Assembly: GCA_050951545.1 (NCBI GenBank)
Contig: JBMNJG010000005.1
Span: forward strand, 195,742-259,741
DNA from: Limnochordia bacterium
GTDB lineage: Bacteria; Bacillota; Limnochordia; DTU080
Reading direction: 5' to 3'
Length of the DNA: 64,000 nucleotides
Positions 17,201 to 48,636 of the stretch are shown here, one piece after another. A program made the position numbers and the translations under genes. Below the pieces are notes generated by a model. It did not search any database. It was not told where the DNA came from and saw nothing but the letters and a program-made list of their open reading frames with translations. Every line of letters starts with the position of its first letter. Position 1 is the first letter of the stretch.

Positions 17201-17648
17201 CACGAACAAGCTGATCGAAACGAACCCCCCCTGTTACGGAGATAGCCTTGGTGGTTGGCCCCATAGACCCTGCTACAAAGCGAAGCTTGCCCGATGTGCT
17301 GTAGCGATCAGCCGCTTTTCGAGCGAGCCTGGCTGCTTCATAGGTAAGGGCGTAGGCTTGATCTGCGAGCTCGTACTCCGCCAAGACGAGGGAGCTGGAT
17401 CCGAAGCTGTTGGTCTCGATGATATCAGCGCCTGCCCGCAGATAGCCCTCATGGATGGCCAGGATCACATCGGAGCGAGTTCTGACCAAGTGCTCGTGGC
17501 ACCCCTCGTAGCGAGGGTCTCCAAAATCAGCGGCAGACAGGCCTCGTTGCTGAATCGCAGTGCCCATGGCCCCGTCGAGAACCAAGATCCGTTCCTGCAG
17601 CGCCCGACGAAAACGCTCGACCCGGTGATCCTGACTCGCCATGCTCAT
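14208..17648 (-). CDS. metH: Cobalamin-dependent methionine synthase
   Basis: 1146 aa with homocysteine S-methyltransferase barrel, pterin-binding, B12-binding (DxHxxG) and AdoMet activation domains. Start overlaps the upstream gene by 4 nt. Confidence 0.9.
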   Translation of the reverse strand: MSMASQDHRVERFRRALQERILVLDGAMGTAIQQRGLSAADFGDPRYEGCHEHLVRTRSDVILAIHEGYLRAGADIIETNSFGSSSLVLAEYELADQAYALTYEAARLARKAADRYSTSGKLRFVAGSMGPTTKAISVTGGVRFDQLVRAFREQARALVDGGVDYLLLETCQDTRNIKAGLVGIEQLSQEWGRPIPVAVSVTIEPGGTMLAGQDMEALITSLEHVDLLYLGLNCATGPEQMADHLRVMAERAAVAVACVPNAGMPDEDGHYGETPHHMARAVERFAQQGWLNVVGGCCGTTSEHIRALVETVSGYSPRTPKAITATFVSGIDNLEIGESNRPVLVGERANVIGSRQFRRLIHEAQYEEAAEVARRQERSGAQILDICVSDPDRDERQDMEALLSNVIRQVRAPLMIDSTDPRVIEPALTFCQGKAIINSVNLEAGERRIDEVVPLVRRYGAALVVGLIDEGGMAVSRQRKLEIALRAYEILVVKYGMRPTDIIMDPLVFPCATGDKEYVGSVRETIEGLRLIKKALPTCKTLLGISNVSFGLPPGAREVLNSVFLYECTEAGLDLAIVNTERLRRYASLSARERDLALKVLFCPDDETIGTFAAHYRDVRSTAPPTPQLSLDERLTRHVVEGSKNGLVDDLALKLEEASPLEIVNGPLMEGMNEVGRLFNRNELIVTEVLQSAEVMKAAVAYLESRIDQTALMTKGTVILATVQGDVHDIGKNLVEMVLGNSGYRIIDLGTKVAPAELVKAVREHQPDLIGLSGLLVRSAQQMVVTAEELTRAGLCPPMLVGGAALTQSFTHKRIAPAYGGLVAYASDVMHGLALANQIMDSDQRQVLVDQLVQEAAQLSPLGSREFTAAAPQQLSAVSMPSAVPEPADFDRHVLTAIDLDSVWGYMNPISLYNHHLGLKTPVHRAWAAQDERAHMLRALVEEVQAECRQGLMRASAVWQYFPAASRGDCLILYHPENGDVLAEWVFPRQHAKRGLCLADYTLPVTSDSRDSVCLFVVTAGHGIAREAERLKEQGDYLRSHVLQALAIETAEAAAEWLHARMRGWWGFPDDPALPTQRILQGHYRGRRYSFGHAACPDLALQKDLFRLLQPEEIGVELTETLMMDPAASISAIVFHHPQCVYFTVR

Positions 17649-19696
17649 TTGCCCACCTCATCGCCTGATGACCGTACGTGCTGACGAACCTGCTCCACGA
17701 ACGTGCAGATAGGCTCATGCTTGCCAAAAGAGAGCACCACGTAGATCCCGGCAATAAGCGAGCTGGCCTGCGTCACGAGTTCAGCGGCTTGCGTGAGGCC
17801 GACCCTGAGTCCATCGTCCCCGGCGAGTTCAAGCTCGCGGCGGATGGCCTCCGGCACAGTGATCCCGGGGACCTCATTGTGAAGGTAGACCGCATGCCTG
17901 TAGCTGTGGAGAGGCATCACTCCCAGCAAGATAGGCACATCGCAGCCCCCAATCTCATCCAAGACCCGATGCAACGGGGCCAGATCATAGACGGGTTGCG
18001 TCATCACAAACTGAGCCCCGGCTGCCAACTTCCGGCGAAAACGATCTGTCTCACGCGCCAGATCGTCAGCGTTCGGGTTCAGAGCACAGCCTACTGCGAA
18101 GTCCGTGGCCTGCCCAGTCGGGTTGCTAAGCAGGTCACGTCCAGCGTTGAGTTCGGTAAGCACACGGATAAGACCGATGGCGTCCACATCATATACCGGC
18201 GTTGCCTGCGTGACATTGCCCAACGATGGCGGATCGCCAGTCAACGCCAGTATATTGCGCAACCCCAAAGCATGGGCGCCCAGCAAATCGGATTGCAGCC
18301 CCATCAGATTGCGGTCCCGCGTTGTCAGATGCACAATGGTTTCCACGCCAACTCCATGCTCAATGAGATGCGCACTGGCCATGGCGCCCATCCGCACCCG
18401 GGCCATCGGACTATCTGCCACATTGATGCAGTCAACACTAGCAGCCTTGAGCGCTGTGGCAGCTTCGAGGAACTTCTTGGTCACCGAACCCTTGGGAGGA
18501 TCCAACTCGACACTGATGACAAACTCACGGCCTAGGTTGGCCCGCAACCCTCGATCAGCTGCCCGGGGAGTAGCTTCCGTAACCTCCTCCACAGGACGAA
18601 CCCGCGGGCGAAGAGGGCTCGTACCCTGACCAGCGGGGGCTGCCATCTTCCTCTCCAACTTGACGCTTGGCGATACGGCCTTCGACGCCCCGACTGCGTC
18701 GCCGTTGGTGCTGTTGGTTTGCCGCGCGTCGAGATACTCTCTCATGGCTGCGATGTGCTCCGGTGTCGTGCCGCAGCAGCCGCCAATCAAGCGTACACCC
18801 CGACTGATGAACCCCTCCATCATCGCTGCGAAGTACTCCGGTGTGGCTGAGTAGAGCACGCGGCCGTCTACGTATGCTGGCAGACCAGCGTTGGGCATGG
18901 CAGACCACATGACAGGGAACGTGATGCTTTCCTGCAGCGTCTCCAATGCCTCCACCACGTGGACAGGACCGCTGCTGCAGTTGACACCGATCACATCAGG
19001 GTAGGCCGCAGGATCCAAGTCGTTTAGGGCGGCCGCCACGCCCTGCGGCGTATACCCAGCGGCGGTGGCCTGCCTCACACCATTACCCAGACCCGGCAGA
19101 TTACGGGGAGCACCATCTGGCCAGAAGGCGAATTGCACAACGATGGGCAGTTTGGAGATCTCACGAGCAGCTCGAATGGCCTCACTCGCCTCCACGGGAT
19201 CTGCCATAGTCTCGATAACGAAAAGATCGACACCACCGGCAAGCAAAGCCTCCATCTGTTCTCGGAAAAGAGCGCGCATCTCTCGCCGTCCCATTGTGCC
19301 CGCTACGCCAATTGGTAAACCTAGAGAGCCCACTGATCCCGCCACCAGGGCGGCCTCACCAGCTATCTCGCGCGCTGCTCGAGCAATCTTAGCACCCCAC
19401 ACATTGATATCCCACACCCGCTCCTCCTGACCGCATTTCTGCAGTCTGATCCGGTTAGCACCATAGGTGTTGGTCTCAATCAAGGATGCTCCGGCCTGCA
19501 GATAGTCCAGATGCGCCTTCTGGACTATCTCCCGATCTGATAGATTCAGACACTCAAAGGATCTCGCCGCCCGGTCACCTCGCTCGTGAAGCAAGGAACC
19601 CATGCCGCCATCAGCCAACAAGACCTCCCCCTGCAGACGTGAGAGGAATGCGCGCACAGCGGAAGGGACATCCGCTCTGCCAGTAAGTGGAGCCAT
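17645..19696 (-). CDS. yitJ: Bifunctional homocysteine S-methyltransferase / 5,10-methylenetetrahydrofolate reductase (YitJ-like)
   Basis: N-terminal half is an Hcy S-methyltransferase barrel (GGCCGTTPEHI). C-terminal half is an MTHFR TIM barrel (FVISVELDPPKG...HLTTRD...ALTGDPP). Confidence 0.85.
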   Translation of the reverse strand: MAPLTGRADVPSAVRAFLSRLQGEVLLADGGMGSLLHERGDRAARSFECLNLSDREIVQKAHLDYLQAGASLIETNTYGANRIRLQKCGQEERVWDINVWGAKIARAAREIAGEAALVAGSVGSLGLPIGVAGTMGRREMRALFREQMEALLAGGVDLFVIETMADPVEASEAIRAAREISKLPIVVQFAFWPDGAPRNLPGLGNGVRQATAAGYTPQGVAAALNDLDPAAYPDVIGVNCSSGPVHVVEALETLQESITFPVMWSAMPNAGLPAYVDGRVLYSATPEYFAAMMEGFISRGVRLIGGCCGTTPEHIAAMREYLDARQTNSTNGDAVGASKAVSPSVKLERKMAAPAGQGTSPLRPRVRPVEEVTEATPRAADRGLRANLGREFVISVELDPPKGSVTKKFLEAATALKAASVDCINVADSPMARVRMGAMASAHLIEHGVGVETIVHLTTRDRNLMGLQSDLLGAHALGLRNILALTGDPPSLGNVTQATPVYDVDAIGLIRVLTELNAGRDLLSNPTGQATDFAVGCALNPNADDLARETDRFRRKLAAGAQFVMTQPVYDLAPLHRVLDEIGGCDVPILLGVMPLHSYRHAVYLHNEVPGITVPEAIRRELELAGDDGLRVGLTQAAELVTQASSLIAGIYVVLSFGKHEPICTFVEQVRQHVRSSGDEVGK

Positions 19697-19964
19697 CTCG
19701 CCAAATCCCTTCTAGTCTTACGGCTTCGTTCACAATGGAATCAGCCTGCGGATAATGATAATGATCAGCCAACTTCAACACCACAGCGGCGATCACCTTT
19801 TCCAGAGCACAGTAGCATCACCAAGAACGAACGTGACCATTCCATGGTGCCCCACAAGAGGCGCAGGGGGTGACCGACACCCGCAATGAGTGGGTTGACT
19901 GCTTCGGGAAGCTGGCCGAGCAGTCGGCTGCCAGCGAAACGCAGGTCTGAAGATCCGGGCAGAC

Positions 19965-20008: not shown

Positions 20009-20205
20009 AACCGGTGTGTGCACGGGTCTGCTTTGGCAGGACGGCACTGGTCACCGCTGCGGGCTAGCGCTGTCCTACCCAGATGCGCCCATCACGACCG
20101 GAAAACGTGCCATCGCGCCTCGCTTGGAAGAGCTCGGTGCACGCCGCCTCTGGTTTTGTCTGAATCGACCTTTTGGTGAAGGAACCCTACCGGAGAGTGT
20201 CGAAC

Positions 20206-21279
20206 ATGTATTCGGGACCCGAACAGACATTCTGGCTGGAGGTGGCACCCTTGGATATCGAAGAGGTTCGCGTGCCGATCTCGTTGCTGCTCACTAGCCA
20301 GTTAAGAGCGACGGATAAGGTAGTTTGGCTGGCTCTCACACTCGACGCTGAATTGGGGCAGCGAGCCCGTCTGTCGCCCACTCGCCTCGCTGCTCGTACC
20401 GGTTTGTCCCGACCCACCATCCGCAAGGCTACGGCAAAGCTAACCACTGAGGGCTGGTACAATCTGCCCACAGGCGTCAACCGGGCCCCAGCAAAAGGGC
20501 TGTCGGGGCCAAGGGTGGTCATGCCTACTGAGCTGATCATCGCCACGGAGGTCAGTGCTCAGGCCAAGGTGGTCTATGGTGCACTGCAGGCCACGCCGGA
20601 TTACCGTAATTTGCAGGGCGTGTTCACATATGCATCTGTGGCCCGGATGATGAGTCTAGACGCCAAGACGGTCAAGCGGGCCGCTCGACAGCTGGCCAAG
20701 CTGGGCTGGCTGGAGACGCAGCAGGAGCACAAGCAAGCTCCCATTTGCTTCAGCCTCTGCAACCCGGTCGCCCGCAGGTACATGGATGAACTGCTAGCGG
20801 CGCAGCAGCGACTCGACGAGGCTGAGTTCTTCGGACAGACCTTGATGCAGGAATACCTATCGGCTATTTTCGACTCCGATGACCATAAGGACAACGCGTC
20901 TCCCCGTTTTCTAGTCAACCCGGCTACTGGCATGTTACTGGAGCTCGACCGCCACTATGACCTCGAGGCCGTGGCCTTTGAGTTTAACGGGCCACAACAC
21001 TACACCCCTACCAAACGGTTCTCGGCTGACGTGGTCGCCAAGCAGATGGAACGTGACAAGACCAAGCGTGAATTGTGTGAGGAGAACAAAGTCACGTTGG
21101 TTGTGATCCATGCCAAGGACCTGTCCTGGCTCACCATGAAGTTCAAGGCTGGCCAACTGCTGCCGTTGCGAAGCGACCTTAACAAGAAACTCCTCAGGTA
21201 CCTCGATCTGAGGAGTCGCTTCTACCGCGAGACGGCTAAGGGTGGCTGGGCGCCCACCAGTGACGCCGCCAACGAATAG
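20206..21279 (+). CDS. Protein with two winged-helix DNA-binding domains and a C-terminal DUF559 (Vsr/PD-(D/E)XK endonuclease-like) domain
   Basis: C-terminal LELD...AFEFNGPQHY...ERDKTKRELCEENKVTLVVIHAKDL matches the DUF559 pattern (vEyDGeqH...rD.rr...L...GW.VvRv). Two wHTH blocks upstream. ATG at 20206 with GGAGAG SD; the ORF track starts at TTG 20173. Confidence 0.65.
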   Translation: MYSGPEQTFWLEVAPLDIEEVRVPISLLLTSQLRATDKVVWLALTLDAELGQRARLSPTRLAARTGLSRPTIRKATAKLTTEGWYNLPTGVNRAPAKGLSGPRVVMPTELIIATEVSAQAKVVYGALQATPDYRNLQGVFTYASVARMMSLDAKTVKRAARQLAKLGWLETQQEHKQAPICFSLCNPVARRYMDELLAAQQRLDEAEFFGQTLMQEYLSAIFDSDDHKDNASPRFLVNPATGMLLELDRHYDLEAVAFEFNGPQHYTPTKRFSADVVAKQMERDKTKRELCEENKVTLVVIHAKDLSWLTMKFKAGQLLPLRSDLNKKLLRYLDLRSRFYRETAKGGWAPTSDAANE

Positions 21280-36905: not shown

Positions 36906-38141
36906 CTAAAAGCTCACCGTCAGTCCCGCAAGAACGCCTTGAGCAGCTTCTTTCAGATCCGCTAACTCGCTTTTTTCACTACCAGTCACCCATACTGCCC
37001 CAAGCGTGAGCTTGGTAGCCTCCGCCAGCTCGTAGGTATACTGTGGTAACAGCAAAGCCCCGCTGTCCGTCGCATTGAAGAGAGCAACCAGCTCGAGATC
37101 GTGCTTGTCTCTGGGCGAGTACTGCCCTCTAGCGACTACGTAGGTCTGCGCCTCACCGCCCACCATCGGATCAAAATAGGGGACAAGTAGGGAGCCTCCC
37201 TGATGATACACGACCTGTGCTGATGCATAGAGCCCGTTGTCGAAGGAGTAGTCTGCGCCCACCACACACTGCATATAGGGGTCGTTTGATGACATAGCCA
37301 GGCTCATCGGGGCGTCAAGCTCATCCAGGTGGTCAGGTACCTTGTAGGCTCCCTCAAACCAAAGAGACGCACCTCGGAAGTCAAAGGCTGTCGCTACGCC
37401 AGCACTCTGCACGCGACGATACTGAGTGCGAGGGACCGGAGGCGGGGCGAGTGGGTCGGCAAAGGTCAGCCACGCCGCTGGCAGGTCATCCCAACCGTTG
37501 AAATAAGTCACATAAACTGGCCACCCGCCGACGGGCAGCTCTCCTCGTACGGCAAATTCCAACTGATCGCCATTGCCAGCAGGCCCCCCCGACGCAGGAG
37601 GCAGCTTCAGCTCGCTGGGCAGATCTCCAGGGACAAAATCCAGCACGCACACACCAGTAATCCCTGCGCCGCCAGGCAGATAGTAGGCCGCCATAACCGC
37701 AGGCACTGGCTTCCCTTTGAGCTGCAGTGCGCTCAGGGAGCCATAGTCCCTGGGGTTGATATCACTCGTGGGGTTAAGACCGTCTGCCGTTCCCCAGTTG
37801 ATCACCTGGCGGCCCACTCGAATATCCACCTGCGACAGGTAGGCATCAGCATATGCTTCGTCAAGCTCCCACCAAGTTCTGGATACAGGCCGATATCCCG
37901 CACCGCCCTTAAACGACAAGCGGTAAACGGTGGCCAAACCTACCTCTCCATCTAGGCTCAGGCTGTAGCGCAGCTGGCTGTTTCCAAAGGACTGCGCTTC
38001 AGTCAGGTAGTGCAGATCATAGCCAAGCTCACCACTAACCTCCGCCGTGGCAGCCCATCCGGGTATGGTGAACATGATGAGCCCCACAAGCACGAACAGA
38101 AACCATCGATCTGCCAATGTACGAACCGCCAACAACAACAC
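36906..38141 (-). CDS. DUF1302-like putative outer-membrane (beta-barrel) protein associated with RND/MMPL exporters
   Basis: Signal/TM N-terminus; motif IRVGRQVINWGTADG resembles the DUF1302 GRQvvnWGe block. Sits downstream of the DUF1329 and MMPL genes. Confidence 0.55.
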   Translation of the reverse strand: MLLLAVRTLADRWFLFVLVGLIMFTIPGWAATAEVSGELGYDLHYLTEAQSFGNSQLRYSLSLDGEVGLATVYRLSFKGGAGYRPVSRTWWELDEAYADAYLSQVDIRVGRQVINWGTADGLNPTSDINPRDYGSLSALQLKGKPVPAVMAAYYLPGGAGITGVCVLDFVPGDLPSELKLPPASGGPAGNGDQLEFAVRGELPVGGWPVYVTYFNGWDDLPAAWLTFADPLAPPPVPRTQYRRVQSAGVATAFDFRGASLWFEGAYKVPDHLDELDAPMSLAMSSNDPYMQCVVGADYSFDNGLYASAQVVYHQGGSLLVPYFDPMVGGEAQTYVVARGQYSPRDKHDLELVALFNATDSGALLLPQYTYELAEATKLTLGAVWVTGSEKSELADLKEAAQGVLAGLTVSF

Positions 38142-38168
38142 GTCCTTTCTGTCAGTGGTGAGGTCCTC

Positions 38169-38957
38169 TTACCGCCTTAGGTAGCGCAGTGTGAACACAT
38201 CCTCAGAGACCGGCTTCTCGCTTGAACTGAGTATGCGTAGAACCGTCGTGCTCCCGGTGTTCAGATCAGCCAGAGTGACCTCATGGGGCTGCCACTCACC
38301 CTTGCTGTTGCGGCGCAGATCCTTGCTATCCAGTCGTTTGATGGGGCGCTTTCGCTTGTCGAAGAACTCCACAGACAGCGGTATCCGGGACTGTTTGTCT
38401 ACCGCCATTGTTAGCCGGCCGTAGCTGGCCTTTGTGGATTTCGGCGCCAACTCCAGCACATAGCAGTCTCGGCCGTCTATGCTCTTGTCACGCTGACGTA
38501 CAGGCTTGTATTCCTCCGAGAACGAGGAAGCCCCGCTAATCTCCTCAAAGGTGAAGTCTGTACCCATAAACTTCCCTTGGACCGCGCTTCCGGCAATAAC
38601 TCGCTCGCGCCCCACCGCTGGTAGATAGAGCCACATCTGGGTGCTTTGTCTGGGCGAGCTGATACTCAGGAACTTCGTGCCCTTAACATCAGCCGGAGCC
38701 ACGAACACAACAAGCTGCTTGGTTGTGCCTCGCCCGTCATCCGAGCGATACAGGTCAACTTGCTGCGTCTTTACCTGTCCCCGCCTACTTGTCACTGTCA
38801 TGTCGACTCTTGCCTCACCGCTGCCCGCAAACGCAGTCGAATCCGAGACGCTGTCAAGAATCTGCTGAGCCGTCGGTTCAGCAGCCTCTACCGCCCCCGA
38901 GAAGACCATGCCGCACAGCAGCGATACTACCACGAGTACACCGAGCCTTTCACGCAA
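38169..38957 (-). CDS. DUF1329 / LolA-like outer membrane lipoprotein-sorting family protein
   Basis: Signal peptide; WLYLPAVGRERVIAGSAVQGKFMGTDFTFEEI matches the DUF1329 core (P..rRv......f.GsDfsyeD). Confidence 0.65.
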   Translation of the reverse strand: MRERLGVLVVVSLLCGMVFSGAVEAAEPTAQQILDSVSDSTAFAGSGEARVDMTVTSRRGQVKTQQVDLYRSDDGRGTTKQLVVFVAPADVKGTKFLSISSPRQSTQMWLYLPAVGRERVIAGSAVQGKFMGTDFTFEEISGASSFSEEYKPVRQRDKSIDGRDCYVLELAPKSTKASYGRLTMAVDKQSRIPLSVEFFDKRKRPIKRLDSKDLRRNSKGEWQPHEVTLADLNTGSTTVLRILSSSEKPVSEDVFTLRYLRR

Positions 38958-38972
38958 TACGAACGCCCCCCA

Positions 38973-39584
38973 CTACTGAGTTTCTGCTGCGGGTGCTAGT
39001 GCCCCCACGCGGAATAGCTGATACACCTCTTGGGCCAGCGCCTCCGGGGATTCGTCGCCATTTGTGACAATCCAATCGAAGGCTACGGCGTGGATCATGC
39101 CCTGAAGAGCCTGAGCCAGAGTGTGCTCATAGACCGTTCGCAGCACACCTTCTCGTATGCCACGCTTCAGAACATCAGCTATCAGCTGACTCATATGCTC
39201 TGATCCACGCTTTGCTGGCCCCTCCATCCCCTCTGCTATCTGGCCAAGCTGACCATAGAGAATGGCGATAAACTCTCTCTCTTCGAAGTAGAAGACGAAA
39301 TGAGCACTGATGATCCCTCTGATCATGGCCGCGATATCGCGTCCCTCGGATATCTGGCCCTCAACCAAGTGAATTAGTCGACCCATTCGCTCCTCGACCA
39401 ACGCTCTGAGCAGCTCTTTCTTGCTCGGGAAGTACAGGTAAATGGTACCCTTTGCTATAGAAGCTCTCTCAGCAATGGTCTCAACCTTAGCCCTGTAGAA
39501 ACCATGTTCTGCAAAAACCTCCTGCGCGGCCGCCAGTATGGCGGCGCGCCGATCACCGCGTTCATAGGCTGACGAAGTACCCAC
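38973..39584 (-). CDS. TetR/AcrR family transcriptional regulator
   Basis: N-terminal HTH AAILAAAQEVFAEHGFYRAKVETIAERASIAKGTIYLYFPSKKEL. Confidence 0.85.
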   Translation of the reverse strand: MGTSSAYERGDRRAAILAAAQEVFAEHGFYRAKVETIAERASIAKGTIYLYFPSKKELLRALVEERMGRLIHLVEGQISEGRDIAAMIRGIISAHFVFYFEEREFIAILYGQLGQIAEGMEGPAKRGSEHMSQLIADVLKRGIREGVLRTVYEHTLAQALQGMIHAVAFDWIVTNGDESPEALAQEVYQLFRVGALAPAAETQ

Positions 39585-39597
39585 GGGCCAGACCCCC

Positions 39598-41886
39598 TCA
39601 TCTCGTGCTGTGAGCTGTCGCTGCAGCCCGTTTCTCGCTACGCGCCGCTCTTGTCACGAGCAGTGCGGGTAGCACGGTAATGGCACTAGTCGCTGACACA
39701 ACCATAGTAGCTGCGATCAAGGCTCCAAACTCACGCATCGGCTGAAAGGCTGACAGCACAAGCACCAAGAATCCAGCGGTTACGGCTCCCGCATTGAGTA
39801 GCACGGCATACCCCGTGGTTGCAGTAGCCTTGGCAATGGCCTCTGCCGAGTGGGCACCATTCGTCCTCTCCTCTTTGTGTCGCGTATACATGTGAATGCT
39901 GTAGTCGATACCCATCCCCACGGCCACGCTGGTCACCAAGGCTGTAACCACATTAAACGACAGCCCAAACCAGCCCATCACCCCAAAATTGACAATGATC
40001 GTGATGACGATGGGGACCAGACACAGCAGGCTAGCTGCCGCAGACCCAACCATCGGCCAAACCAGGAGAAAGACTGTGATAAGCGACAGTACGAGGCTTT
40101 GTACTTGGCCCTCAGTGATCAAGTCAGCCATGGACCGCCCCAGCAGAGGTGTCCCCGTAACCTGAACCTCGCTCACCTCAGGGACGGCGCCCAACTCGTC
40201 GCAGATCCGCTGCACCCGGTCCAACACAAGCCGTTGCTCCTTAGACGACGTCGCAGCCATAATGATCTCGATCTTGGCTTGCTCGTGATCGATCGTCAGC
40301 AGCTCAGACAATCCGGCATCACCTGACATCGACAGCAGTAGCAAATACTGAGCTATAGCCTCGCGTGTATCGGGAATGCGCTCGTAGGCAGGGTCATCTG
40401 CATGCAAAACTCGAGAGACCCGCTTCACCAAGTCTACTACAGACAGCGGAGTAGACAGATGCGGAATCGCCTTCAGCTGTTCTTGAGCCGTTTCCATCGC
40501 CCGCAGCACTTCCGGCTCGGTGATACTGCCATCCACAACGATCTGGATAGTACCCGTGCCCCCAAAATGCTCCTGAACCAGGTCAAACGCGTTACGCGTG
40601 GGGCTCCCCTTCTCGAAGAAGTTGATGAAGTCGGTCTCGACACTCAGGCGAGGCAAGCCTAAGGCCGCAACGACTACTATACCAAACGCTATTACGGCCA
40701 CAACACCCCGATGGCGGGCCACCCATCCGCCGAATCTGGCCAGAAAGGCCGCTTCACCCTGCTCGACACTGCGCGACCAACCCCGCTCACTGCGCTTGCC
40801 GACCAACAGAAGAATGCTGGGGATCATGACAGTGGAGACAACCAAGGCCACCAACACGCCAAAGGCTGTCAATAGCCCAAACTCGCGAATGCGGATAATG
40901 CTGCTAAAAGCATTTGACAGAAATCCAGCGGCCGTAGTAGCGCCAGCCATGAAGACTGCGGGGCCTACCTGTCGCACCACGCGCTCTACTCGCTCACGGT
41001 TATCTGTTACCTGAGTTACCTCTCCCCGGTAGCGATGTAACACGTGAATGCCGTAGGCACTGCCGACACTAGTGAAGACAGCTGGCAGGATGGCACTCAG
41101 TTGAGTGAGCGGCACGCCAGTGAAGCCCATCAGACCGAGGGTCCAGGTCATGCTGATTAACATGGTCAGTAGCGGCAGAAGCACGCCCTGCCAGTTGCGA
41201 AAACTGAGGAAGAGCATGGACAGAATGAGAATCACTACAAGCGGTGACAAACGCAGGAGGTCGCTACGCAAGGCCTCGTTCATCACCTGGTTTAGAACCG
41301 GACCACCCGTAAGATGCACCGTCATGTCACCGCACGCCTCACCAATCGCCGCCCGAATAGCGTTTACGGTTGCATCATTATCCGCCCATTCGTCTAGCGT
41401 AAGCAGGATAAGAGTGAAGGCTCCGTCTTCAGATACCAGCTTTCCAGCCAGCTGGTTGTCCTCCATCACTTGGCGCCGGAAGGCTTCAACCTCATCCTGA
41501 GTCGTCGGCAGCTCAGACAGCATGGGGCTCACTTCGATACCCCATTCCGAACCCCTGATGTTCTCGATGCTGGTCAGACTACGTACTGTGTCCACGCCTT
41601 CGACAGCACTGAGAGCCTCGGTCAGCCGATCCAGGTCAGCGATGCCGCTGAGAGAGAAAACCTCCTGGGCCTCTACCGCCAGCATGATGTATTCCGAACT
41701 GCCGAAGGTGTCTTGTGTCTCATTGAACAGCACCACACGGGGGTCATCTTCAGAGAAAAAGTTGGTCACATCGGTAGCCATGGTGACCCGCAAGGCACCA
41801 TAGCCAAACACCAGCGTCGCCAGCACAAAAAAGCTGACCACCCATCCTGGGTAACGCCGTATTAGCTTCTGAACGAGATCTCGCAC
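39598..41886 (-). CDS. MMPL family RND-type exporter
   Basis: 762 aa with two 6-TM bundles each followed by a large extracytoplasmic loop (SSD/MMPL topology). Confidence 0.85.
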   Translation of the reverse strand: MRDLVQKLIRRYPGWVVSFFVLATLVFGYGALRVTMATDVTNFFSEDDPRVVLFNETQDTFGSSEYIMLAVEAQEVFSLSGIADLDRLTEALSAVEGVDTVRSLTSIENIRGSEWGIEVSPMLSELPTTQDEVEAFRRQVMEDNQLAGKLVSEDGAFTLILLTLDEWADNDATVNAIRAAIGEACGDMTVHLTGGPVLNQVMNEALRSDLLRLSPLVVILILSMLFLSFRNWQGVLLPLLTMLISMTWTLGLMGFTGVPLTQLSAILPAVFTSVGSAYGIHVLHRYRGEVTQVTDNRERVERVVRQVGPAVFMAGATTAAGFLSNAFSSIIRIREFGLLTAFGVLVALVVSTVMIPSILLLVGKRSERGWSRSVEQGEAAFLARFGGWVARHRGVVAVIAFGIVVVAALGLPRLSVETDFINFFEKGSPTRNAFDLVQEHFGGTGTIQIVVDGSITEPEVLRAMETAQEQLKAIPHLSTPLSVVDLVKRVSRVLHADDPAYERIPDTREAIAQYLLLLSMSGDAGLSELLTIDHEQAKIEIIMAATSSKEQRLVLDRVQRICDELGAVPEVSEVQVTGTPLLGRSMADLITEGQVQSLVLSLITVFLLVWPMVGSAAASLLCLVPIVITIIVNFGVMGWFGLSFNVVTALVTSVAVGMGIDYSIHMYTRHKEERTNGAHSAEAIAKATATTGYAVLLNAGAVTAGFLVLVLSAFQPMREFGALIAATMVVSATSAITVLPALLVTRAARSEKRAAATAHSTR

Positions 41887-43581: not shown

Positions 43582-43657
43582 TGGTGCGCGCGAGAGGATT
43601 TGAACCCCTGGCCCTCTGATCCGAAGTCAGATGCTCTATCCACTGAGCTACGCGCGC
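43582..43657 (-). tRNA. tRNA-Arg (anticodon UCG)
   Basis: Reverse complement reads GCGCGCGUAGCUCAGUGGAUAGAGCAUCUGACUUCGGAUCAGAGGGCCAGGGGUUCAAAUCCUCUCGCGCGCACCA with anticodon loop CUUCGGA. Confidence 0.9.
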
Positions 43658-44532: not shown

Positions 44533-44585
44533 CTTTGAGAACGGCTCTCCTCGTCAAAAAGGGGCATATACTAGCTGCATGCTTA

Positions 44586-44631
44586 TTGACATATGCTCAC
44601 ATACTCCGTATCCTGGCATTGAGCATATGCC
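44586..44631 (+). promoter_or_regulatory. Promoter (TTGACA-17-TATCCT) overlapped by two CATATGCTC-type palindromic half-operators (GACATATGCTCA ... TGAGCATATGCC)
   Basis: Inverted 10-mer CATATGCTCA separated by 20 nt; identical TTATTGACATATGCTC start shared with site 2 at 47251. Confidence 0.55.
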
Positions 44632-44706
44632 CTGTTTGTGCTGAGACTGCACATACTAGATTTGCTAATTGCCAGGCAACGTTACGCAAAAGAGAGGGGT
44701 TTGACA

Positions 44707-45450
44707 GTGAAGATAGCCATCACAGCGCAGGGAAAATCACCTGACGCCACTCTGGATCGCCGCTTTGGTCGAGCACCCTTCGTTTTCGTTGGAGATAGCG
44801 AAAGTGGTGTGCTCCATCCCTATGAAAATGAAGCCCGTCTGCACCAGAGTGGCGCTGGCATTGCAGCGGCTCAGTCGCTGGTCGATCAAGGCGTTGAAGT
44901 TCTCATCACAGGGGAGGTCGGTCCAAAGGCCGCGCAAGTACTACAAGCTGCGGGAATCAAGGTACATCGCACGACAGCAAATACCGTACCGGAAGCCCTG
45001 GCCGAGTTCCAGCAGGCATTCACCAAACCAGCAACTCCGTTGACTCTCTCGCCTGCTGGCTCAAGAAGTGCCACGACGCAAGACACACCTGTACAGCAGA
45101 AGCGCCAGCCTGTCTCCGAAGCCGTTGTGGCCGTAGCCACTGATGGAGACAGTGTGGCACAGCACTTCGGCAGATGCGAAGAGTATACGTTAGCAACCAT
45201 CAAGGGCGGAGCGGTAGTCAGCCGCCGCGTGGTCACCAATCCGGGCCATGAACCTGATTTCCTACCGGGCTTCTTGGCGGAACGCGGGGTGACAGCGATC
45301 ATTGCCGGGGGCATGGGTCCAAGAGCGATAGAGCTGTTTAAGTCCAAGGAAATCGACATCATCGTGGGTGTCTCGGGACTTGTCTCTGAGGCCATCAATG
45401 GCTATAGAGACGGATGCCTGCTAGACGGCGAGAGCTCTTGTACGCACTAG
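44707..45450 (+). CDS. Tandem NifX/NifB-like dinitrogenase FeMo-cofactor-binding domain protein (two Nitro_FeMo-Co domains)
   Basis: Two repeats of the KIAI..G........FGR...F.......GV..II.G..G fold. GTG start at 44707. Confidence 0.7.
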   Translation: MKIAITAQGKSPDATLDRRFGRAPFVFVGDSESGVLHPYENEARLHQSGAGIAAAQSLVDQGVEVLITGEVGPKAAQVLQAAGIKVHRTTANTVPEALAEFQQAFTKPATPLTLSPAGSRSATTQDTPVQQKRQPVSEAVVAVATDGDSVAQHFGRCEEYTLATIKGGAVVSRRVVTNPGHEPDFLPGFLAERGVTAIIAGGMGPRAIELFKSKEIDIIVGVSGLVSEAINGYRDGCLLDGESSCTH

Positions 45451-45478
45451 ACCTAACACCCGTGGATGGTGAGGATGT

Positions 45479-46342
45479 ATGAAACTGGCGATCGCCAGTG
45501 GCAAGGGTGGCACCGGAAAAACCACCATTGCCACCAACTTAGCTGTCACTTTGGCTGAGACCAATGGACAAGTGCAGCTGCTAGATTGCGATGCAGAGGA
45601 ACCGAACGCGCACCTCTTCCTGAATCCTGTAGGGACCGCCAGCCGTACCGTAGAATCACTGGTCCCTCAGATTGATGCTGAAAAATGTAACCTGTGTGCA
45701 AAGTGCGTTGAGGTCTGCGCCTACAGCGCTCTTGCTACAGCTGGCGGCCAAGTGCTGCTCTTTCCTGAGATGTGCCATGGTTGCGGCGGGTGTGCTCGCT
45801 TTTGCCCTAAACAGGCCATTGAAGAGGTCACGCGCCCTATTGGCGCTGTCCTCAACGCCCAAGTCTCCGAACTTGAACTTGTCTGGGGCAAGGCGCACAT
45901 TGGCTTACCACTGGTACCAGCGGTCATCGCAGAAGTGAAAAAGATGGCCAGACCTGAAGCAACAGTGATCATTGATGCGCCCCCTGGCACCTCCTGTGCA
46001 GCAGTGGCGGCGATCACAGATTGCGACCTGTGCCTTCTCGTAACGGAACCTACTGCCTTTGGCCTGCACGACCTGATGCTCGCCACAGAGATGGCTCGCG
46101 AGCTCAATCTGCCTTCTGCAGTCATCATCAACCGTTCTGATCTCGGTGATGAAAGGGTTCGCGCCTACTGCCAGGACAACTCGCTACCGATCCTGCTGGA
46201 GATTCCTTTCTCCCGCAAGCTTGCAGCGTGCTATGCACGCGGACAGCTATGGGTTAGGGAGTACCCTGAATGGCGAGCCGCATTCACAGGCCTGTGGAAG
46301 CGAATAGAGGAGTACGCACATGAAAGAGCTATTGGTAATTAG
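45479..46342 (+). CDS. MinD/ParA-superfamily P-loop ATPase with inserted 2x[4Fe-4S] ferredoxin domain
   Basis: Deviant Walker A GKGGTGKTT; CNLCAKCVEVC and CHGCGGCARFC cluster motifs. Confidence 0.8.
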   Translation: MKLAIASGKGGTGKTTIATNLAVTLAETNGQVQLLDCDAEEPNAHLFLNPVGTASRTVESLVPQIDAEKCNLCAKCVEVCAYSALATAGGQVLLFPEMCHGCGGCARFCPKQAIEEVTRPIGAVLNAQVSELELVWGKAHIGLPLVPAVIAEVKKMARPEATVIIDAPPGTSCAAVAAITDCDLCLLVTEPTAFGLHDLMLATEMARELNLPSAVIINRSDLGDERVRAYCQDNSLPILLEIPFSRKLAACYARGQLWVREYPEWRAAFTGLWKRIEEYAHERAIGN

Positions 46343-47222
46343 CGGTAAGGGTGGTACAGGCAAGACCTCGGTGGTGGGGGCCTTCGCCACATTGGCCCGC
46401 AACGCAGTCCTGGCTGACTGTGATGTTGACGCGGCAAACCTGCACTTACTGCTCGATCCGGAGATCCAACATGAGCATGTTTTCCACGGACTACCGCGAG
46501 CTCAGATCGATCAAGCCACCTGCGCCTCCTGTGGCCTATGTCGGGAAGTCTGCCGCTTTGACGCTATCAGTAGCGACTACGTTGTCGATCCCATGGCCTG
46601 TGAAGGCTGTGGCATCTGTCTTCGTGTCTGCCCGGTAGATGCGATTACCGCCCAAGAACGCGTAGCCGGACACTGGTTCGTCTCCACGACTCCCCACGGC
46701 CCCCTCGTACACGCTCGCCTCAATACGGCGGAAGATAACTCAGGCAAGCTTGTGGCTGAGGTTCGCAGAGAAGCACGAGAACTTGCTGAAGAGCGGCAAC
46801 TCGACCTGATCATTGTGGATGGACCACCGGGCATCGGTTGCCCAGTGATCTCCGCTCTGACTGGCACCGACCTCGCCTTGTTAGTGACCGAACCGAGTGT
46901 GTCGGGCTGGCATGACTTGGCCCGAGCGCTAGAGCTTACAGAGCATTTCGAGGTCCGAACCGTCGTCTGCATCAACAAGGCTGATCTGCATGAGCCCATG
47001 AGCAAACAGATCGAGTGGCACTGTTACGACCGGGGCGTCGACGTGATAGGCAGAATTCCCTTCGACAAGCAATTGGCTCAAGCTGCAGTTAGGGGTACTG
47101 CTCCTGTCTTGGGCGATACCCCGGCCTCCACTGCATTACGTAAGCTCTGGGAAAAAACACATGCTCTACTCATGCAGGATTCATCGAGGAATCCACGTCC
47201 CCTTCGTCTCGACACCCGTTGA
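46320..47222 (+). CDS. Second MinD/ParA-superfamily P-loop ATPase with inserted 4Fe-4S ferredoxin domain
   Basis: GKGGTGKTS; CASCGLCREVC and CEGCGICLRVC. Confidence 0.8.
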   Translation: MKELLVISGKGGTGKTSVVGAFATLARNAVLADCDVDAANLHLLLDPEIQHEHVFHGLPRAQIDQATCASCGLCREVCRFDAISSDYVVDPMACEGCGICLRVCPVDAITAQERVAGHWFVSTTPHGPLVHARLNTAEDNSGKLVAEVRREARELAEERQLDLIIVDGPPGIGCPVISALTGTDLALLVTEPSVSGWHDLARALELTEHFEVRTVVCINKADLHEPMSKQIEWHCYDRGVDVIGRIPFDKQLAQAAVRGTAPVLGDTPASTALRKLWEKTHALLMQDSSRNPRPLRLDTR

Positions 47223-47253
47223 ACCGCCGATCGCGATCTCGGTCGAATTGTTA

Positions 47254-47300
47254 TTGACATATGCTCGCCACGATGTTACGCTTTTAATGAGCATATGCTC
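47254..47300 (+). promoter_or_regulatory. Second promoter (TTGACA-17-TACGCT) with the same paired palindromic operator, including a perfect GAGCATATGCTC
   Basis: GACATATGCTC - 22 nt - TGAGCATATGCTC, upstream of the DUF5320 gene. Confidence 0.55.
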
Positions 47301-47333
47301 TTTAGCGTGTGCTAAGGGAAGGAGGCGAATGGG

Positions 47334-47672
47334 ATGCCACGCGGTGATGGAACTGGCCCACAGGGCTTCGGTCCCATGACAGGACGCGGCGCTGGTTTCT
47401 GTGCAGGATTCCCCGTACCAGGTTACCAGAACACGCCCGGATGGGGCGCTGGTCGTAGCGGTGGATGGGGCGGCGGCGGAGGGCGAAGACGTTGGTGTTA
47501 CCGAATGCCTATGCCGTACCCTGCCGCATACGACCCAGGGTATGCGCCTGCAGCGACCTCCAGTGAGGCGGAGTTAGGTCTCCTAAAAGGTGAGGTTTCG
47601 CGTCTAAAGGGTCTGCTGTCTGAGATCAACGCCCGCATCAGGGAACTCTCGCCGAAAGAAGAGGCCGAGTAG
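47334..47672 (+). CDS. DUF5320 family glycine-rich protein with C-terminal coiled coil
   Basis: MPRGDGTGPQGFGPMTGRGAGFCAGF start and GWGGGGGRRRWC block; the family is typically found beside NifX-like/Fe-S ATPase genes in anaerobes. Confidence 0.65.
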   Translation: MPRGDGTGPQGFGPMTGRGAGFCAGFPVPGYQNTPGWGAGRSGGWGGGGGRRRWCYRMPMPYPAAYDPGYAPAATSSEAELGLLKGEVSRLKGLLSEINARIRELSPKEEAE

Positions 47673-47696
47673 ACTCTGTTTGACGGGGATCGGGTA

Positions 47697-47730
47697 GGAT
47701 GACGCCCGCCCATCAGCGGGCGTCATCCCT
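47697..47730. terminator. Perfect 13-bp hairpin, bidirectional terminator
   Basis: ggatgacgcccgc-ccatca-gcgggcgtcatcc. Confidence 0.65.
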
Positions 47731-47769: not shown

Positions 47770-48315
47770 CTAGTAGAGAGCCCCGGCTCTTGACCAGTTA
47801 TATCCGTAGAAGGAGCGCCTTTCATCTATGAACTCCCTAGCGTACGCAAGAACCACGAGTAGCAGTGGCAACCTATGCGCATCGAAGTCATAGATAGTGG
47901 TCTGATCGCAGTCAGCTGACACGACCTTCTTCTTTTCGAGACCGTATCTGGCGAGGGCATCCACGACCCGCATGCACTGCTCCTCATCAAGGGCGCATGT
48001 TCTCTCTATCGCTGAAGGTGCGAAACTGAAATGCTGTTTCTCAGCGAGGAACGCCAGCACCCTTAGGAAACCAGGTGTAGAGATGTCGCCAAAGAGACCT
48101 GTAACAGCACTGGTCGCATCTAGGACCGATCTCCACCCGTCAGGGGGATCTGACATCACGACAAAACCGAAACCAGTGCGGATGTTGGTAAAGCCCCCAG
48201 TCACGATGATCCGTGATGAGTGCTGCTCTTCCTGCTTGGCCCTGTTCCGTTCAGCCTCGCTCGTCTCCGACAAGAGGTCAAAGGAGTCTAGCTGCATGTC
48301 CCAACATCGATCCAT
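47770..48315 (-). CDS. Hypothetical protein (181 aa), possible winged-helix fold
   Basis: ORF with coding composition, convergent with the DUF5320 gene; no clear motif. Confidence 0.4.
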   Translation of the reverse strand: MDRCWDMQLDSFDLLSETSEAERNRAKQEEQHSSRIIVTGGFTNIRTGFGFVVMSDPPDGWRSVLDATSAVTGLFGDISTPGFLRVLAFLAEKQHFSFAPSAIERTCALDEEQCMRVVDALARYGLEKKKVVSADCDQTTIYDFDAHRLPLLLVVLAYAREFIDERRSFYGYNWSRAGALY

Positions 48316-48636
48316 GAAGGCCCCAATGATGTCGCCGCCAGGCCCGGTCGGGTGACTCCCTTCTTCTTTCTCAGGCCAGCAATCTCCTCACCGATGCCTA
48401 CATCGCTCATATGCTGATCACCTCCGTGATTCTGAGGCTGGGCCCCGCAGCCGTGATGCCAGCATACTATCGGAGCGCAGTCGATAGCAACAGAGCGGGC
48501 ATTGATTGCGGCGAAGGTCATTCGATACGCGCATACACGATCAACCAGCGGTTGAGCATCTCGCATCGTCACTCAGATCCCCAAAGCCTCACGCATCCCC
48601 GCTAAGAGGTCGCATAATAGCCCTGACAAAGCCTGA

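Follow-up and report, generated by a model that had tools for sequence, protein, structure and literature searches.

The orange-protein (ORP) complex is a metalloprotein assembly particular to anaerobes. In Desulfovibrio vulgaris Hildenborough, the orp1 and orp2 units encode the NifX-like protein Orp8, the MinD-like proteins Orp3 and Orp4 with their two [4Fe-4S] motifs, and the small cysteine protein Orp5, and the orp genes of Desulfovibrio are under the control of sigma-54, OrpR (DVU2106) and IHF (PMC3897727, PMC8359166, PMC6345978, PMC4641369). In the literature searched, orp regulation is described only in this form, as sigma-54/OrpR/IHF control in Desulfovibrio. Here we analyze a 64-kb stretch of a Limnochordia bacterium genome (contig JBMNJG010000005.1, positions 195,742 to 259,741; hereafter, the window), in which an ORP-like gene cluster is preceded by two promoters, P1 and P2, each bearing a pair of CATATG-centered palindromic sites that we term O1 and O2. 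The locus resembles D. vulgaris orp1/orp2 in its gene content and in having two units that would be co-regulated by one dedicated regulator through palindromes at both promoters. It differs in several respects: P1 and P2 are of the sigma-70 type, with no -24/-12 element and no enhancer-binding sites upstream; their palindromes overlap the -35 element and the predicted start, implying repression rather than activation; no Mrp/Orp9 gene is present in the window; and the candidate regulator belongs to another family, DUF134. We put at roughly 60% the probability that the paired palindromes are the operators of a dedicated repressor of the ORP-like module, most likely a DUF134/UPF0251 protein (PF02001) that is encoded in trans in this organism.

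The two promoters open alike, as a preliminary description of the locus had noted: the 16-mer TTATTGACATATGCTC occurs identically at 44583 (P1) and 47251 (P2), and at both the arm TTGACATATGCTC lies over the -35 hexamer and is followed 22 nt later by the inverted arm GAGCATATG. Read directly, P1 has TTGACA at 44586-44591 and CATATG centers at 44590-44595 and 44624-44629, and P2 has TTGACA at 47254-47259 and CATATG centers at 47258-47263 and 47292-47297, such that the gap between the 9-nt arms is exactly 22 nt (rather than the 20 to 22 nt first given for the second arm) and the centers are 34 bp apart in both cases. The left half of O1 is fused with the -35 hexamer (TTATTGACATATGCTCA): at P1, the operator-like O1 spans 44583-44602 (TTATTGACATATGCTCACAT) with TTGACA embedded in its left half, and at P2 it spans 47251-47270 (TTATTGACATATGCTCGCCA) and likewise holds the -35. 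The P1 promoter reads TTGACA-17-TATCCT, its -10 lying at 44609-44614 on the plus strand (10/12 match in the promoter scan), and the -10 of P2, TACGCT at 47277-47282 on the same strand, also follows a 17-bp spacer; it is weak, recognized by direct reading and below the threshold of the promoter scan, and aligns to TATGCT and TATGTT in the related loci L011 and L016. O2 begins 5 nt past the -10 and is centered near +5 of the predicted transcript. It occupies 44617-44636 at P1 (CATTGAGCATATGCCCTGTT, with the core TGAGCATATGCCCT at 44620-44633) and 47285-47304 at P2 (TAATGAGCATATGCTCTTTA). The second arm is thus placed at the predicted start, downstream of the -10, and not across the -35 to -10 region as had been stated; the perfect 12-bp palindrome reported for one arm is indeed there, as GAGCATATGCTC at 47289-47300 within the O2 of P2, and its P1 equivalent, GAGCATATGCCC at 44621-44632, is a palindrome with one mismatch. 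A possible third, degenerate site, GGGCATATACTA, lies at 44562-44573, 25 bp upstream of the P1 O1 (9/12 matches to GAGCATATGCTC); its counterpart in L014 (1004-1015) is AGTCATATGTCC, and P2 has no such site.

Within the window, CATATGCTC occurs seven times against 0.48 expected, a number reached by none of 100 shuffles, whereas CATATG by itself shows no enrichment (14 found, 12.8 expected). Three further CATATGCTC matches (including those at 39192 and 53023) and a related site at 37847 fall within long open reading frames (ORFs), are non-palindromic, and were dismissed as chance. One such match lies within a TetR regulator gene (38973-39584), which is part of a minus-strand stretch (36906-41886) that also holds an MMPL/RND-type transporter gene (39598-41886) and DUF1329/DUF1302-like genes, an unrelated efflux or lipid-transport module. 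The sequences between the arms are unlike at P1 and P2, the likeness being confined to the functional blocks, and the two promoters are therefore not the product of a simple duplication.

Diverged orthologous loci, cited here by number, were found through NifX homologues. JGI and Logan metagenome contigs that match the window itself all belong to one species, and NifX identity to the window is 74% in L014, 66% in L011 and L016 (the latter from Clostridia bacterium DTU080) and 54% in L012. In an alignment of eight promoters (five P1 and three P2) from five species covering this range of 54-74% identity, the only invariant columns are ATTGACA at the -35, T-A...T at the -10, and TG.GCATATG..C right after the -10. 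Because invariance is limited to the promoter hexamers and this downstream site, O2 emerges as the universally conserved element: it is unchanged across orthologous loci down to 54% protein identity, and L012 and L013 retain it without an adjoining DUF5320 gene. The window species and L014 both have O1, but it is absent in L011 and L016 (where the sequence is TTGACACGACCC) and degenerate in L012; O1 is lineage-specific and O2 universal. The concern raised in the preliminary description, that these might be chance NdeI-like palindromes, is countered by their conservation at orthologous loci and by their excess in the window.

The same architecture extends well beyond these relatives. Scanning GTDB species representatives with a NifX alignment yielded 80 loci, over which a recurrent gene cluster is seen (DUF5320, NifX, NifX, Mrp, MinD-Fer, MinD-Fer) that matches the Desulfovibrio orp operons in gene content (PMC6345978, PMC3897727, PMC4641369), and ORP-like clusters of unrelated metagenome-assembled genomes (MAGs) share the arrangement of TTATTGACATATGCTCATAA, a spacer, TATAcT, five nucleotides and TGAGCATATGCTCA (L016, twice; L020, L026, L039, L040, L063, L066 and L067). 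The hybrid O1 form TTATTGACATATGCTCATAA is also found in L033, L066, L067, L106, L107, L116 and others, and O2 recurs before the ORP-like gene set in Bacillota, WOR-3 and other lineages, with 40 distinct sites giving the consensus TWATGAGCATATGCTCATWA. A degenerate 20-mer, TTATKRKYATATRMYMATAA, is matched at 17 or more of its 20 positions at 33 places in 1.1 Mb, compared to about 3 in shuffles, and at 26 of these places a detected cluster gene follows within the next 500 bp. Hybrid O1 sites and sites with one conserved half escaped a strict palindrome scanner, and half-sites were counted instead. Metagenome contigs were additionally scanned without regard to gene content for TTGACATATGCTC-N21-23-GAGCATATG (22 specified bases), which recovered 21 loci: 19 hold ORP-like genes and/or DUF134, mostly right after the site, and the other two, on contigs of 1.3 and 2.5 kb, gave no gene hit. 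In 13 of the 19, DUF5320 or Mrp comes next among the detected genes, and DUF5320 is the commonest gene directly downstream of the operator overall. The result of this unbiased scan indicates that the two-site element is dedicated to the ORP-like module, and the sequence comparisons as a whole support regarding the palindromes as a genuine, selected cis-regulatory element of an iron-sulfur (Fe-S) or metal-cofactor module, found at scarcely any other kind of locus. To this extent the earlier suggestion of a dedicated dimeric repressor of an Fe-S module holds, in that the element is selected, module-dedicated and placed as fits a repressor; the part that fails is the 181-aa protein put forward as that regulator, to which we return below.

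The preliminary description had named DUF134, Rrf2 and ArsR as families in which a co-occurring regulator might be sought, and the comparison singles out DUF134, a family widespread in anaerobic Bacteria and Archaea. Among the 80 NifX-selected loci, DUF134 is encoded in 26 (profile hidden Markov model [HMM], E < 1e-26), Fur-family proteins in 25, DtxR (with Feo) in 9 and ArsR in 5; among the 21 motif-selected loci, the figures are 15 for DUF134, 1 for Fur and 0 for ArsR. In L100, L112 and L115, the gene behind the two-site promoter is DUF134 itself. The linked DUF134 protein matches PF02001 (E = 7e-25) and joins a Sigma70_r4_2/Sigma70_ECF-like helix-turn-helix (HTH) to a Zn_ribbon_8 Cys4 module. 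A sequence search of the PDB returned no relative of DUF134. In an AlphaFold model (predicted local distance difference test score, 74), the HTH superposes on region 4 of extracytoplasmic function (ECF) sigma factors (SigR, 5fgm, 0.7 A; SigH, 6kon, 1.0 A; SigE region 4 on -35 DNA, 2h27, 0.9 A) and on the operator-bound DNA-binding domain of Bacillus subtilis DeoR (7bhy, 0.7 A, 42% identity), so that the modeled likeness amounts to 0.7-1.0 A and 32-42% identity over 40-47 residues. O1, for its part, contains TTGACA. Unlike an ECF sigma factor, however, DUF134 has neither sigma region 2 nor region 3; its N-terminus is a conserved basic arm (MPRPPKCRRV), and many members also have a Cys4 zinc ribbon. 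Its presumed target is palindromic, which implies a dimer.

What we regard as the strongest argument for DUF134 is the covariation between its recognition helix and the operator. The recognition helices of these proteins begin in two main ways, [VI]SR[PSTAG]T and [VIL]AQST, and loci of the AQST class lack GAGCATATGCTC. Seven of the eight AQST loci have instead a TATATA-centered palindrome at the same position after the -10 (no assignment could be made in L032): GGGTATATACCC in L060, AGATATATACCCA in L029, L035 and L036, and TGATATATATCA-like sequences in L058, L074 and L075, as exemplified by TGGGTATATACCCG at 8928-8941 of L060 and TTATTGATATATACCAATAA at 8482-8501 of L074. This operator class was found only where the linked DUF134 helix is AQST, not SRPT. 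When upstream half-sites were counted uniformly (CATATG[CTA][CT]C versus TATATA[CT][CT][CAG]), 22 of 27 SRxT loci scored as CATATG-type and 4 as TATATA-type, against 0 and 8 of the 8 AQST loci; restricted to loci that had not been selected by motif, the counts were 10 and 3 of 15 for SRxT and, again, 0 and 8 of 8 for AQST. By the strict operator call, the classes differ as 12/15 to 1/8 (Fisher p = 0.006). In archaeal loci, where DUF134 with the helix SRKTLW or SQPTF stands beside NifX/DUF5320, there are CATATG-centered palindromes with other flanks (TTACGCATATGTGTAA at 1738-1753 of L086, Methanobacteriota; TTATGCGCATATGAGTAA at about 9925-9945 of L095, Methanoregula), and the DUF134-operator system may thus extend to Archaea.

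These features suggest how the module might be controlled. Two sigma-70-type promoters would serve it, P1 for the NifX-like gene and the two MinD-Fe-S genes and P2 for DUF5320, with O2 (consensus TWATGAGCATATGCTCATWA) as the high-affinity site at each. A dimeric HTH repressor bound to O2 (about +1 to +14) would block open-complex formation or promoter escape, and in this lineage a repressor on O1 would exclude sigma region 4 from the -35 by competition, such that the P1 and P2 units would be switched together; the signal is perhaps a metal, Fe-S or redox cue perceived through the Cys4 module, a speculation for which Fur and OrpR offer precedents. The arrangement that we propose as the mark of a DUF134-controlled class, TWATGAGCATATGCTCATWA right after the -10 with an optional copy fused to the -35, is present at both P1 and P2. 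The broader proposal, to which we assign even odds, is that DUF134 proteins are dedicated ORP-module repressors in which a free-standing sigma-region-4-like HTH competes with sigma on a 20-bp palindrome, the first residues of the recognition helix set the specificity (SRPT for CATATG, AQST for TATATA), and the Cys4 module may sense metal, Fe-S or redox state. In the literature searched, no function, DNA target or published operator was found for DUF134/UPF0251 (COG1342, PF02001), and no function for DUF5320. The present analysis would define the operator of the ORP-like module in Bacillota and several other phyla precisely, as TWATGAGCATATGCTCATWA, together with a candidate for its cognate regulator, and would, if the assignment is true, give DUF134/UPF0251 a first function and DNA target. 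Judged from sequence, this appears to be a new pairing of transcription factor and operator that works by an ordinary mechanism and is dedicated to a module that is specific to anaerobes and poorly understood, and the helix-operator covariation lends itself to a specificity swap.

A third mode of control is apparent in other lineages. In L047, L054, L056, L059, L062, L065, L069, L071, L072, L078, L083 and L085, a Fur-family gene stands first in the ORP-like cluster with a Fur box ahead of it, and in loci with Fur only (Aminicenantes and 'Eubacteriales' MAGs) the -10 is immediately followed by a classic Fur box, ATTGAAAATGATTATCAAT, with no CATATG-type (type-A) operator. These clusters share with the window locus the gene set and an operator directly after the -10; they differ in that the regulator gene is first in the operon, whereas the window locus has no Fur gene, and in that a Fur box is built as 7-1-7, whereas the operator of P1 and P2 is a gapless 10+10 palindrome. 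No Fur box (TGATAAT-N-ATTATCA-like, up to 3 mismatches) was found near P1 or P2, the only matches in the window being at 19750-19770 and 60430. Those at 19750-19770 are overlapping Fur-box-like matches (GGATAATGATAATGATCAGCC) in the intergenic region between ORFs at 17645-19696 (minus strand) and 20173-21279 (plus strand). The Fur-only loci with their Fur boxes therefore place the same module under different regulators in different lineages, and at least three such connections can apparently be distinguished: to sigma-54/OrpR, to Fur through Fur boxes, and to DUF134. The link with Fur points to a module that responds physiologically to iron or metal status.

Several observations weigh against DUF134 as the binder, or against parts of the proposed mechanism. 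The transcription start is a predicted one. No DUF134 gene was detected by HMM in the window, L001 or the closest relatives, L011-L016 (nor by tblastn and six-frame HMM search in the window and L001), and the regulator would therefore have to act in trans here. A strict type-A operator accompanies only 13 of the 26 DUF134 loci, a number to which the degenerate scan adds slightly, TATATA-type variants being detected apart from both scans. The AQST proteins form only about two related subgroups, so that the covariation rests on few independent events, and an O1-O2 distance of 34-35 bp amounts to a non-integral number of helical turns and so does not imply cooperative binding; among lineages the distance ranges from 33 to 35 bp, which suggests that it follows promoter geometry and not helical phasing. 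Lastly, a Bacillota-type Fur paralogue adjoins type-A operators in L039, L040, L063, L064, L077 and L111, as does ArsR in L057 and L076. For a DUF134 acting in trans, a precedent by analogy may be seen in the cultured Peptococcaceae Desulfoscipio gibsoniae (Desgi_0163; L119, 8001-8477) and Desulfofundulus thermocisternus (L120, 8001-8486), where the SRPTY-type gene sits amid housekeeping genes and not beside an ORP cluster, with SpoIIE, TilS, FtsH, NDK, FTHFS, HD and folate genes as conserved neighbors. There was no clear operator upstream of the D. gibsoniae and D. thermocisternus DUF134 genes, and autoregulation is therefore not universal.

It could accordingly be asked whether the operator, though real, is bound by some other trans-encoded factor, such as a Fur paralogue, an ArsR/SmtB-type sensor or a member of an unrecognized family, with DUF134 as a passenger. 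The window clade does lack DUF134 in cis, the type-A operators of L039, L040 and L063 have a Fur-family gene as immediate neighbor and no DUF134 in view, and in L040 a Fur-like gene is driven by a two-site promoter. We nevertheless consider this unlikely, since Fur and ArsR are outnumbered by DUF134 in the motif-selected set, the seventeen Fur-only loci that bear DUF5320 have classic Fur boxes and no type-A operator, L039 and L063 stop at a contig edge at the position where DUF134 is frequently found, and covariation between helix and operator is displayed by DUF134 only. Operators of the ArsR/SmtB type (CzrA, SmtB) are AT-rich 12-2-12 palindromes with TGAAC/GTTCA-like arms that overlap the promoters of metal-handling genes, and L024 and L064 have TGAACATATGTTCA variants that presumably look like the TGAACA..TGTTCA form; the palindrome of P1 and P2, by contrast, is gapless with a CATATG center, and ArsR is missing from all 21 motif-selected loci. 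Fur and ArsR are thus minority rivals. That DUF5320 itself might bind DNA and regulate its own gene, as a small coiled-coil dimer that perhaps carries an Fe-S cluster, strikes us as improbable: it most often lies directly downstream of the operator, which would explain why it has an operator-bearing promoter of its own, it is the sole small unassigned protein encoded in cis in the window clade, and it combines a C-terminal coiled coil with a conserved cysteine, but it shows no recognizable DNA-binding fold and no family match beyond DUF5320, L012 and L013 keep O2 with no DUF5320 adjoining, and Orp5, probably its equivalent in Desulfovibrio, is a subunit of the ORP complex reported to bind a [2Fe-2S] cluster (PMC6345978). 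As DUF5320 also occurs in at least 17 Fur-box-controlled loci that have no type-A operator, it is no predictor of that operator. Least probable is a non-protein element, be it an RNA structure in the 5' leader, what is left of a duplicated promoter, or NdeI-like palindromes that arose by chance. O2 would indeed be transcribed, and the P2 leader is able to form a hairpin (z = -2.4); yet O1, of the same sequence, precedes the predicted start; a palindrome with no gap is ill suited to hairpin formation; folding of the P1 leader is no stronger than that of shuffled sequences (z = 0.26); the pairing partner in the P2 hairpin is not conserved in L011 and L016; and Rfam matches no regulatory RNA, such as a Moco riboswitch, in the promoters or leaders, its only match being a tRNA at 43585-43657. 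In addition, P1 and P2 have only their functional blocks in common, and the conservation of the sites spans phyla.

The 181-aa ORF nominated in the preliminary description (47770-48315, minus strand) does not qualify as the regulator. It has no Pfam, PHROG or NCBIfam match, alone or joined to a 40-codon ORF upstream, it is confined to the window species, and it is absent from L011 and L016, both of which keep the operator and in both of which DUF5320 directly abuts V-ATPase subunit D (89% identical). Because it belongs to a species-specific insertion missing in relatives that retain the operator, we rejected it. This insertion (47770-48413, minus strand) lies between DUF5320 and the V-ATPase operon, is absent in L011 and L016, is identical across all sampled strains, and holds no family matches; its 40-codon ORF, which overlaps the 181-aa ORF in another frame, is preceded by a good Shine-Dalgarno sequence and encodes an N-terminus that is XRE-like (MSDVGIGEEIAGLRKKKGVTRPGLA...). 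What had been taken as an operator half-site upstream, GCTCATATGCTGA at 48405-48417, is made up of the ATG (48410-48408, minus strand) and Shine-Dalgarno sequence of the 40-codon ORF, whose GGAGGTG lies 7 nt ahead of an ATG contained in CATATG, and it agrees with the operator at only 3 of 6 flanking positions.

The genes of the cluster bear out its ORP-like identity, and Pfam agrees with the assignments first made for them: two Nitro_FeMo-Co domains, two MinD/CbiA proteins with two [4Fe-4S] motifs each, and DUF5320. The first gene of the P1 operon (44707-45450, plus strand) encodes a tandem NifX-like protein (PF02579 twice, 1.5e-39), comparable to Orp8, with a partial NCBIfam match to the C-terminal domain of MrpORP. 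Its start is favored to be the GTG at 44707 (247 aa), which follows the ribosome-binding site AAAAGAGAGGGG and agrees with homologues of 230-246 aa that start with MKIAI; the JGI gene call gives 270 aa from a GTG at 44638, 2 nt past the end of O2 (44636). The next two genes (45479-46342 and 46320-47222, plus strand, with a 23-nt overlap) encode paralogous Orp3/Orp4-like MinD/ParA-type ATPases (Pfam CbiA/ParA and Fer4), the first a P-loop ATPase with an inserted ferredoxin domain and each with two [4Fe-4S] motifs. The Mrp/NBP35-DiNase fusion protein (Orp9/MrpORP) was not found: tblastn detected no separate Mrp in the 64-kb window, and matches to NF041136 there were partial and sub-threshold. 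Mrp is present in most related loci. No TGGCAC-N5-TTGC-like match, as expected for sigma-54/OrpR/IHF control, was found at 44560-44640 or 47240-47310. Behind its own operator-bearing promoter, the DUF5320 gene (47334-47672, plus strand; Pfam 7.7e-24) encodes a protein with a Gly/Arg-rich, cysteine-containing N-terminus and a C-terminal coiled coil, which, by its equivalent position beside two MinD genes, is probably the counterpart of Orp5. A 13-bp GC-rich hairpin, GGATGACGCCCGC-CCATCA-GCGGGCGTCATCC (47697-47728), recognized by direct reading 3' of DUF5320 and unflagged by the promoter scan, likely marks the end of the transcript and has no strong T tract.

Further genes recur in ORP-like clusters elsewhere (L054, L059, L069, L071, L072, L081 and others; L053, L057 and L076; and L066, L028 and L035). 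They encode a protein with a CGGC domain (PF08821), a Zn_ribbon_8/FmdB-like peptide whose tail is rich in Cys, a TrmO_N-like protein that in WOR-3-type loci lies between the operator and DUF134, and a radical SAM protein. Upstream of the cluster in the window, the tRNA gene at 43585-43657 (minus strand; Rfam, 71.8 bits) lies between sulfatase and CBM9-like genes, and it occupies the same place in L011.

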